DNA of 670 nucleotides from Escherichia coli (GCF_003334385.1 NZ_QOWN01000154.1), one strand, 5' to 3'; shown: positions 2 through 670, counted from the first letter of the stretch. Program-made: numbers and translations. The notes: generated by a model from the letters alone, not told the origin.

Positions 2-295
2 TACTCGAGGGAATTAGCCGATGCGAGAGCTGAAAATGAAACTCTGCGCGCTGACGTTGCCGCTGGTCGTAAGCGCCTGCGGGTCAACGCCACCTGCCCC
101 GGTACCGTGCGTGAAGCCACCGGCACCTCCGGCGTGGATAATGCAACCGGCCCCCGACTGGCAGACACCGCTGAACGGGATTATTTCACTCTCAGAGAGC
201 GGTTGATGCTGATGCAGAAGCAGCTGGAAGGGGCGCAGGAATATATCCGCACTCAGTGCACTAAGCTGGCTTTTTATTATCCGGAGGATATATGA
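2..295 (+). CDS. Rz: Rz i-spanin (inner-membrane spanin subunit), C-terminal portion; 5' end lies upstream of the window
   Basis: Frame 2 is open from position 2 to TGA at 293-295. My translation is YSRELADARAENETLRADVAAGRKRLRVNATCPGTVREATGTSGVDNATGPRLADTAERDYFTLRERLMLMQKQLEGAQEYIRTQCTKLAFYYPEDI. From memory this aligns closely with the C-terminal half of lambda Rz (...KELADAKAENDALRDDVAAGRRRLHIKAVCQSVREATTASGVDNAASPRLADTAERDYFTLRERLITMQKQLEGTQKYINEQCR), including both periplasmic Cys positions. The track ORF 107..295 is only the internal-Met part of this frame. Confidence 0.9.
   Translation, partial: YSRELADARAENETLRADVAAGRKRLRVNATCPGTVREATGTSGVDNATGPRLADTAERDYFTLRERLMLMQKQLEGAQEYIRTQCTKLAFYYPEDI
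7..11 (+). promoter_or_regulatory. Shine-Dalgarno-like GAGGG for Rz1, located inside the Rz coding sequence
   Basis: GAGGG lies 9 nt upstream of ATG at 21. This spacing fits translation initiation of the embedded gene. Confidence 0.5.
21..206 (+). CDS. Rz1: Rz1 o-spanin, outer-membrane lipoprotein, embedded in the +1 frame of Rz
   Basis: Track ORF MRELKMKLCALTLPLVVSACGSTPPAPVPCVKPPAPPAWIMQPAPDWQTPLNGIISLSESG (61 aa). From memory it resembles lambda Rz1 (MLKLKMMLCVMMLPLVVVGCTSKQSVSQCVKPPPPPAWIMQPPPDWQTPLNGIISPSERG). It has a hydrophobic signal peptide, a lipobox V-S-A-C with Cys at codon 20 (nt 78-80), Gly at +2 (no inner-membrane retention Asp), and a proline-rich mature part with a conserved internal Cys (PVPC). 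A GAGGG Shine-Dalgarno at 7-11 lies 9 nt upstream of ATG 21. The true start could instead be ATG 36 (MKLCAL...). Confidence 0.86.
   Translation: MRELKMKLCALTLPLVVSACGSTPPAPVPCVKPPAPPAWIMQPAPDWQTPLNGIISLSESG
274..282. repeat. Left copy of an exact 9-bp direct repeat TTATTATCC
   Basis: An identical 9-mer recurs at 523-531. This copy lies immediately 5' of the SD of the small ORF, within the 3' tail of Rz. Confidence 0.35.
283..288 (+). promoter_or_regulatory. Shine-Dalgarno GGAGGA for the downstream small ORF, inside the last codons of Rz
   Basis: GGAGGA at 283-288 is followed by ATG at 292, a short 3-4 nt spacing. ATG 292-294 overlaps the Rz stop TGA 293-295 (ATGA), a typical translational-coupling arrangement. 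Confidence 0.5.
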
Positions 296-516
296 AGAAA
301 TTACGGGTAACCGTAGAACCTTTTCAGGGAACAATTCCGTTCCGTATTTTGCAGCGTGGTCGTGTTCTTGTTGAAGGTTCGTTCAGTGGTAAATGTACGC
401 AATTACACTCCCGGACCTTTCAGGTGAATGCCACGAATGAAGAGCTAACCGTTGAGTGTACGATGAATGCCGCTAAATGCCGCATGGTATCCGCTGCATT
501 ACAGCCAGTGTGTTGA
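292..516 (+). CDS. Hypothetical small protein (74 aa), no family recognised; candidate moron or accessory gene downstream of the lysis cassette
   Basis: Track ORF MKKLRVTVEPFQGTIPFRILQRGRVLVEGSFSGKCTQLHSRTFQVNATNEELTVECTMNAAKCRMVSAALQPVC, ATG to TGA, with SD GGAGGA upstream and ATGA overlap with Rz. By my manual counts GC is about 45-48% in 301-480, against roughly 68-70% in 61-180 and about 60% in 541-600. It has no signal peptide or hydrophobic segment, and four Cys that do not form a CxxC motif. Alternating hydrophobic and polar residues near the N-terminus suggest beta strands. Confidence 0.5.
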   Translation: MKKLRVTVEPFQGTIPFRILQRGRVLVEGSFSGKCTQLHSRTFQVNATNEELTVECTMNAAKCRMVSAALQPVC

Positions 517-522
517 GCGACC

Positions 523-531
523 TTATTATCC
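523..531. repeat. Right copy of an exact 9-bp direct repeat TTATTATCC
   Basis: Identical to 274-282. It starts 7 nt after the TGA stop of the small ORF at 514-516. Confidence 0.35.
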
Positions 532-642
532 ATGCGCGGTATTGTCGCCGTATTCCTGCATTAACAGAGACCGCAGCCCGACCGGGAGACTCCTCTGCGC
601 GAGTGTGCGGGGATAATCAAAAACGATACACACCGGGGTTTA

Positions 643-661
643 CCGCGTTAACGGAGCGCGG
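643..661. other. Short inverted repeat (CCGCG-N9-CGCGG) containing the palindrome CGTTAACG; possible weak hairpin
   Basis: CCGCG at 643-647 pairs with CGCGG at 657-661, and the loop contains the palindromic octamer CGTTAACG at 646-653. No U-run follows (GCGTTGTCCC), so it is not a convincing intrinsic terminator. Confidence 0.2.
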
Positions 662-670
662 CGTTGTCCC

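Follow-up and report, generated by a model that had tools for sequence, protein, structure and literature searches.

The small RNAs described in lambdoid prophages, namely AgvB and AsxR, STnc100 and Pas, StxS, and the LPR1, LPR2 and 6S RNAs of lambda, are non-coding, display conserved synteny and lie in or near the late operon. The anti-sRNAs AgvB and AsxR occupy the moron site upstream of the lysis genes (PMC4104026). The Pas sRNAs sit at the same kind of site, ahead of the lysis genes (10.64898/2026.05.13.724894). As a group these RNAs are found either at the moron site or near pR', are 50–200 nt long, carry their own promoters and terminators, and are bound by Hfq. The RNase III hairpins, such as the R-sites of T7 and sib of lambda, are intercistronic interrupted helices of about 25 bp in long phage transcripts, placed at module boundaries and devoid of a promoter or terminator of their own. 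The H-type pseudoknots, exemplified by the T4 gene 32 leader and the frameshift stimulators, follow the order S1–L1–S2–L3, with a short L1 and a purine-rich L3.

How does the element described here compare with these? Like the prophage sRNAs it is a lambdoid non-coding sequence of conserved synteny in or near the late operon, but it lies after Rz and has neither of their two transcription signals. With the RNase III hairpins it shares the interrupted helix, the position at a module boundary and the lack of a promoter or terminator, but it is much larger (~180 nt) and includes, besides the helix, a 3' pseudoknot and a hairpin of variable sequence; neither sequence nor Rfam comparison links it to the T7 R-sites or lambda sib. 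Its pseudoknot has the S1–L1–S2–L3 plan, here backed by covariation, but, unlike the gene 32 leader and the frameshift stimulators, the element precedes no consistent ORF or slippery site and lies outside any conserved frame. Finally, the proteins of the phrog_6954 and ECs_1218 type translate this same block of DNA in 933W-type phages, in a frame that is not conserved across element types.

The window, by which we mean the whole 670-nt stretch of Escherichia coli DNA that was analysed, is 100% identical to positions 1,857,542–1,858,211 of E. coli SW070917 (NZ_CM129862.1), in the late region of a lambdoid prophage. Beyond the window edge we used the extended locus L001, in which positions 5001–5670 are the window. 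The gene order in L001 is Rz with its embedded Rz1, a 74-aa ORF, an unannotated gap of 344 nt, a TonB-like lipoprotein moron, ylcI on the minus strand, an HNH gene, TerS and TerL. The 3' end of Rz, the i-spanin, occupies positions 1–295 of the plus strand (PGAP ‘lysis protein’, L001 4801–5295). Embedded in its +1 frame, on the same strand, is Rz1, the o-spanin lipoprotein (21–206), which starts MRELKMKLCALTLPLVVSAC and carries the lipobox MKLCALTLPLVVSAC; it is absent from the PGAP annotation of the identical genome, where Rz alone is given as ‘lysis protein’. The annotated 74-aa hypothetical ORF (292–516, plus strand) overlaps the stop of Rz (ATGA). It matches phrog_2571, of function unknown, only over profile positions 100–172 of 291, and may represent either a short paralogue or a fragment from a family of longer genes.

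A first-pass annotation of the window had drawn attention to a frame that opens at ATG 477 on the plus strand and overlaps the end of this small ORF. ATG 477–479 is indeed present, within the last 40 nt of the 292–516 ORF; the codons at 477, 480 and so on are free of stops through 670; and our translation is identical to the peptide reported. The frame is missing from the ORF track solely for the reason offered, that it runs off the window, as the ORF listing confirms. Direct reading of the sequence likewise detects nothing resembling a Shine–Dalgarno sequence upstream of 477. The annotation had leaned towards a spurious frame in GC-rich sequence lacking a Shine–Dalgarno site, and had proposed that the sequence be extended downstream, a stop soon after 670 with no homologue speaking against a gene. 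Followed into the 100%-identical extension, the frame runs on for 82 nt beyond the window and stops at L001 5752, making an ORF of 91 codons of which 477–670 holds the first 64. There is no long ORF, PGAP makes no call for the 91-aa ORF in the identical genome, and no genuine homologue was found. The sceptical reading was therefore correct. The alternative, that the frame opens the next late gene, perhaps that for the terminase small subunit, does not survive: the ORF stops before the TonB-like moron, which is the next annotated gene (PGAP, L001 5861–6187), and TerS comes only 1.5 kb later, at L001 7218. What had escaped notice is a conserved non-coding block beneath the same bases.

The TonB-family lipoprotein moron itself is of 113 aa, counted from a GTG, and its region, L001 5801–6187, lies 131–517 nt past the window end. 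Ahead of it, at L001 5801–5828, is a sigma-70-like site with an extended −10 (ATGACC-16-TAGAAT, TG present). The moron shares its reading frame with the 477 ORF by coincidence, four stops intervening.

The conserved block is about 180 nt long (~181), extending from L001 5532 to 5712, or from window position 532 to ~712. Its bounds are sharp and its flanks unrelated, so that the window holds the 5' 139 nt (532–670, plus strand), the first three quarters of a probable structured RNA element recognised by its bounded conservation, by its covariation and by the presence of copies in lambda and DLP12. Used as a BLAST query, the gap returned this ~180-nt core in some 400 phage records at 71–100% identity. 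The fetched loci yielded 180 copies, comprising 78 distinct sequences; six Salmonella phage records that matched the gap query were left out of the copies analysed, and these could be the most divergent sequences on which to examine covariation. Phage lambda has a copy at 46,868–47,032, between bor and lambdap78, and the DLP12 prophage of K-12 MG1655 has one at 579,009–579,174, between borD and ybcV; both are unannotated. As well as in these two, the element occurs in most Stx-converting phages. The block is thus real as a conserved feature.

Its surroundings are far from constant. We distinguished about seven types of upstream flank and about eleven of downstream flank. In 160 of the 163 loci Rz is found upstream and in the same orientation; as little as 5 nt can separate the two, and some phages have the block beginning 5–10 nt past the Rz stop. 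The nearest recognised upstream gene is Rz in 78 of these loci, bor (minus strand) in 61 and the 74-aa ORF in 23. Downstream are found, variously, ybcV/p78/ylcI, a Nu1-like TerS, HNH–TerS or the TonB-like moron. Neither a promoter nor a Rho-independent terminator belonging to the element was detected beyond chance, and the flanks change right outside the block. We take the element to be part of the pR' late transcript, since it is on the sense strand, is fixed 3' of the lysis cassette and lacks a promoter and terminator of its own.

When one genome of each species was scanned, the core turned up in Escherichia alone, apart from contigs 93–99.6% identical to E. coli prophage loci. These contigs (L131 and L133–L136) are assigned to Candidatus Nanosynbacter, Collinsella, Thiomicrorhabdus and Proteobacteria MAGs, and match E. 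coli lambdoid prophage loci over 0.5–6 kb. At that level of identity they are probably mis-binned or contaminant.

If the block is conserved, is it conserved as a coding sequence? ATG 477 is retained in only about 12 of the 65 unique sequence variants of the block. In most variants the frame is interrupted within the block, by TGA at 0 (just before GTGTGCGGG), by TAA at +15 or +45, or by TAG at +72. In no variant is either of the remaining plus-strand frames open, and no frame on the minus strand stays open across the variants. Indels of 1 nt and of 17 nt fall inside the conserved block. Variability at codon positions 1, 2 and 3 is 0.078, 0.083 and 0.039, respectively; the third position is the least variable, the reverse of the coding pattern. 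Nor is the length of the ORF unusual. In dinucleotide-preserving shuffles, an ATG-initiated ORF of at least 91 codons arose in 32% of the randomised versions of the 900-nt neighbourhood and in 6.4% of those of the 411-nt gap region; for at least 64 codons the figures are 72% and 31%. Because the ATG is rarely kept, stops and indels occur in most variants, the third position varies least and the length is within the reach of chance, we conclude from the sequence comparisons that the ORF from ATG 477 is a chance, non-conserved frame and not a gene.

The protein databases contain matches to the 477 peptide, all of them from E. coli and Shigella and of 50–147 aa. These matches carry no Pfam domain, and an NCBIfam search with the peptide returned nothing. 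The peptide does match phrog_6954, labelled ‘Rz-like spanin’, with E = 1.6e-13, but only over residues 20–64. The match breaks off at a 1-nt indel that shifts the reading of the conserved bases from there on. The 81 positions of phrog_6954 correspond to this block as translated, over 81 aa, from its 933W-type copy. By direct reading, the 477 peptide (MPHGIRCITASVLSDLIIHARYCRR...) has neither a hydrophobic stretch of ~20 residues nor a lipobox, and so lacks the features of a spanin. With the genuine Rz and Rz1 upstream, the label is probably an annotation artefact, one that probably spreads to new phage records. CDSs of the phrog_6954 type were seen at L004 1976–2221 and at L179 9476–9679 (ECs_1218), and there are many ‘hypothetical protein’ calls of this kind in 933W-type Stx phages. 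phrog_6954, and with it many hypothetical proteins of Stx phages and of Sakai (ECs_1218), are probable translations of non-coding sequence. As a gene prediction, then, the 477 frame is ordinary, one more spurious ORF.

What, then, is conserved? RNAalifold, applied to 71 sequences, returned a long interrupted hairpin followed by a 3' hairpin; the helices P4, P5 and S1 were added to this set by inspection. In the resulting model, all of it on the plus strand, domain I is an interrupted hairpin of ~90 nt (P1–P2–P3) with near-invariant internal loops. It is closed by P1, in which GUAUUGU (539–545) is predicted to pair with ACGAUAC (623–629). This helix (helix 1) is 98.4% paired, with pair variants GC 77/AU 1, UA 44/UG 26 and CG 60/UG 17. 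The 5' strands of P2, P2b and P2c follow at 551–565 (P2, 551–557, UAUUCCU; P2b, 559–561; P2c, 564–565). P2 (helix 2) is 99.9% paired; its pair 30/90 is found as UG 43/UA 31/CG 4 and its pair 35/85 as CG 57/UG 13/GC 7, the flip to GC occurring in lambda-type copies, outside the set used to build the model. At the apex, 572–599, P3 (CGCAG, 572–576, with CUGCG, 595–599) is predicted to enclose the apical hairpin P3b (CCC, 577–579, with GGG, 584–586) as well as an apical region containing GGA; one pair in helices 3–4 is found as CG 50/UG 27. The 3' strands of P2c, P2b, P2 and P1 occupy 603–629 (P2, 609–615, GGGGAUA). Nowhere is the element more strongly conserved than here, where the near-invariant internal loop AUCAAAA (616–622) also lies. 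Direct reading places GGA motifs at two conserved apical or loop positions.

Domain II (635–670) consists of P5 enclosing P4, the GGG of P5 (635–637) pairing with CCC at 669–671, across the window end. P4 is a variable hairpin, CCGCG (643–647) with CGCGG (657–661) in the window. In this helix (helix 6) three of the five pairs are changed on both sides (CG/UA, CG/UA and GC/UG), the sequence variants being CCGCG/CGCGG, CUGUG/CGCAG and CUCAU/AUGGG. Past the window edge lies a 3' H-type pseudoknot, also marked by covariation, with S1 at 677–681/691–695 and S2 at 684–690/706–712 in window numbering. Its purine-rich loop, GGAAGAAAC, is invariant. S1 is found as UCGC/GCGA, CUCGC/GCGGG, CCGC/GCGG and GCCAG/CUGGC. 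S2 is found as GUCCGGU/ACCGGAC and GUCCUGU/ACAGGAC, the G-to-U change and its compensating C-to-A occurring naturally in mEp460-type copies. The copies of lambda and DLP12 have a degenerate S1 and an A·G mismatch in P1, and one element type lacks S1 through a 17-nt deletion. The indels of the element are located in loops and junctions.

How well is this fold supported? A covariance model was built from the nested helices and the 78 distinct sequences were re-aligned to it. Standard pairs make up 98.2% of the 3,557 pair cells, compared with 33–63% when the 3' partners are slid; ten pairs are changed on both sides, compared with 0–7 in the slid controls, and 64 cells, compared with 0–31, contrasts that are inflated since the structure was scored on the same sequences from which it was derived. 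S1, which stood outside the model, is 98.3% paired and three of its five pairs covary. The compensatory changes are spread over five helices. They represent only a handful of independent events among recombining sequence types, because the copies analysed come from a single genus (phages of Escherichia/Shigella). G–U cells number 367 and A–C cells 18, an excess of about 20-fold that constitutes a sense-strand signal. The alifold energy agrees: −21.3 for the plus strand (z = −5.3 against column-shuffled alignments) versus −5.5 for the minus strand (z = +0.4). On the other hand, the minimum free energy of the single sequence is no better than that of its shuffles (z = −0.04 for the plus strand and +0.66 for the minus), and the MFE fold differs from the consensus, at −65.4 kcal/mol compared with −59.6 kcal/mol when the consensus is enforced and the pseudoknot left uncounted. 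Many stem nucleotides are invariant beyond what pairing needs, which a constraint at the level of DNA could also explain. Overall, the comparative evidence makes it probable that the block is a folded, sense-strand RNA structure.

Is this structure a known RNA? Rfam 15, whose models cover AgvB, AsxR, STnc100, Esr41 and IsrK as well as riboswitches and ribozymes, gave no match at E ≤ 1 over 3 kb of the locus (L001 4500–7500), and none with the lambda copy. With the element alone the only match was to mir-1421 (E = 0.8), whose 16.6 bits fall short of the gathering score of 45 and which we attribute to chance. The same search recovers AgvB, AsxR and STnc100 in the Sakai prophages, ~5–7 kb upstream of the element. 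Identity with AgvB, AsxR, Pas or STnc100 was rejected, for these precede the lysis genes, at the moron site, and the Rfam models miss the element; so was identity with lambda LPR2 or 6S RNA, which lie near pR' and not at the position of the element (10.1101/2024.10.31.621285). No tRNA or tmRNA was detected at the locus. The element is not among the RNAs reported from RIL-seq of lambda infection (10.1101/2024.10.31.621285), and the orphan Hfq-bound sites of EHEC Sakai, determined in uninduced cells in which the late operon is silent, include no peak on the Sp5 copy. The literature on borD/ybcV, on a non-coding RNA at lambda bor and on lambdoid structured RNAs yielded nothing relevant, and neither a review of phage sRNAs nor the lambda essentiality map mentions the position of the element.

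Two very strong Hfq peaks, the orphan sites EcOnc11 and EcOnc12, at one stage appeared to fall on the core of the element. The coordinates of Tree et al. 2014 are ~140 nt lower than those of NC_002695.2, as calibrated with the AsxR and AgvB matches; once calibrated, the peak maps just 3' of the element and on the minus strand, and the assignment to the core was rejected. EcOnc11, in Sp10, corresponds to L180 6462–6510 (NC_002695.2 ~1,946,961–1,947,009, minus strand) and coincides with an intrinsic terminator, ACUGCUGUGACUCCAACACGGCAGUUUUUUUAUU, which closes the ylcI-like gene ECs_1967 and directly adjoins the element on its 3' side. EcOnc12 is the corresponding site in Sp9; only the Sp10 copy was mapped. 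Both look like 3'-UTR-derived RNA.

Taken together, positions 477–670 are probably best explained as a spurious ORF lying over a functional, sense-strand structured RNA. A module of ~181 nt would be transcribed within the Q-dependent late (pR') transcript, directly 3' of the lysis cassette in lambdoid phages. Its RNA would fold in three parts, the hairpin of domain I, the P5-closed P4 hairpin of domain II and the 3' H-type pseudoknot, and both ends would be locked in helices; its action would be post-transcriptional. As to what that action might be, we tentatively propose that the module acts in cis on the stability or processing of the lysis-gene segment of the late mRNA. The pseudoknot and terminal helices might serve as a barrier to 3'-to-5' exonucleases, or there might be an RNase III-type site, which would fit the predicted helix geometry (about 27 bp, interrupted by internal loops). 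Either would determine how stable the lysis genes' part of the message is relative to the downstream modules; release of the module as a stable RNA is an alternative outcome. A role in cis is favoured because of the position at a module boundary, often right after the Rz stop, and because no constant gene follows. If functional, the module would give the lambdoid late operon, from which Shiga toxin and the lysis genes are also expressed, a new element acting after transcription.

The late transcript might instead be cut to give a stable non-coding RNA of ~180 nt that acts in trans by binding a host or phage protein or RNA. Conservation stops abruptly at both ends of the element, and both ends lie in helices, as expected of an excised stable RNA; the loops AUCAAAA and GGAAGAAAC are invariant beyond the needs of pairing, which suggests recognition by a partner; GGA motifs occupy two conserved apical or loop positions; and the variety of downstream genes argues against any single cis target in that direction. 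Yet no target complementary to the invariant loops is conserved within the 180 fetched loci, the element is absent from the Hfq-bound RNAs both of uninduced EHEC and of lambda infection, and it has no promoter or terminator of its own. Because of the invariant loops we nevertheless regard a trans-acting stable RNA as nearly as likely as the cis role, which is to say possible and somewhat doubtful. The candidate functions, a decoy for a host defence factor or RNA-binding regulator, or a controller of lysis timing, are offered with the same reserve. Put more broadly, and as speculatively, the element could represent an unrecognised class of structured RNA, ~180 nt long and ending in an H-type pseudoknot, that constantly accompanies the lysis cassette and works by way of a specific partner: it might titrate a host RNA-binding protein or defence factor, for instance, or adjust when lysis happens with respect to packaging. 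Its carriers would then be phage lambda, the Stx-converting phages and the cryptic prophages, and lambda, the best-studied of phages, would gain a new regulatory RNA.

The fold might also be incidental, the block serving as DNA, either as a recombination ‘linker’ between lambdoid modules or as a regulatory region for minus-strand morons such as bor, or both. It sits exactly at mosaic joints, between the several flank types enumerated above; many of its stem bases are invariant; lambda recombines with DLP12 in the region of the element (PMC3945230); and in the HK630 and HK629 records a promoter on the minus strand is annotated within the 5' domain of the lambda-type copy. But a DNA site is not expected to show compensatory changes in five helices and a 20-fold excess of G–U over A–C, and the indels lie in loops and junctions. 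Moreover, in 102 of the 163 loci, including that of the window, bor is not the nearest recognised upstream gene, and in the window's type the minus-strand −10 box is destroyed. Because of the covariation and the G–U excess we consider a role at the DNA level unlikely. Still less probable, to a degree that approaches dismissal, is a real small protein, whether the 91-aa product or a member of the phrog_6954 ‘Rz-like spanin’ family. The frame is open in the window's variant, annotations of some genomes include comparable ORFs, an 81-aa CDS is given at this place in 933W-type phages, and the E-value of the phrog_6954 match is low. However, that match stops at an indel, neither start nor stops are conserved, the codon positions vary in the wrong order, Pfam, NCBIfam, PGAP and the search for a Shine–Dalgarno sequence all came back empty, and the real spanins are already present upstream. 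Equally improbable is that a ten-codon mini-ORF (ATG 532 ... TAA, MRGIVAVFLH) is a leader peptide coupling translation to the fold. Its ATG lies at the first bases of the block in at least 90% of variants and its TAA is invariant, but it has no Shine–Dalgarno sequence, its bases are GTG CGA TGA in the lambda/933W type, and in other types the start is replaced by CTG, ATT or TTG and the stops differ. We rejected it since it is not conserved across element types; the conservation of its bases is accounted for by their forming the 5' strands of P1 and P2.

The promoter in the curated HK630 and HK629 records has the sequence TGGACA-N15-TACAAT; in HK630 it lies at L181 1223–1249 on the minus strand, equivalent to lambda ~46,882–46,908, and it is presumably P_bor. 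Its −10 box falls on variable bases of an internal loop, CAUUG in the bor-linked types and CGCCG in the type represented by the window. Since the latter reads TACGGC instead of TACAAT, the promoter is a feature of a subtype, and in the bor-carrying phages the same DNA may be dual-purpose.
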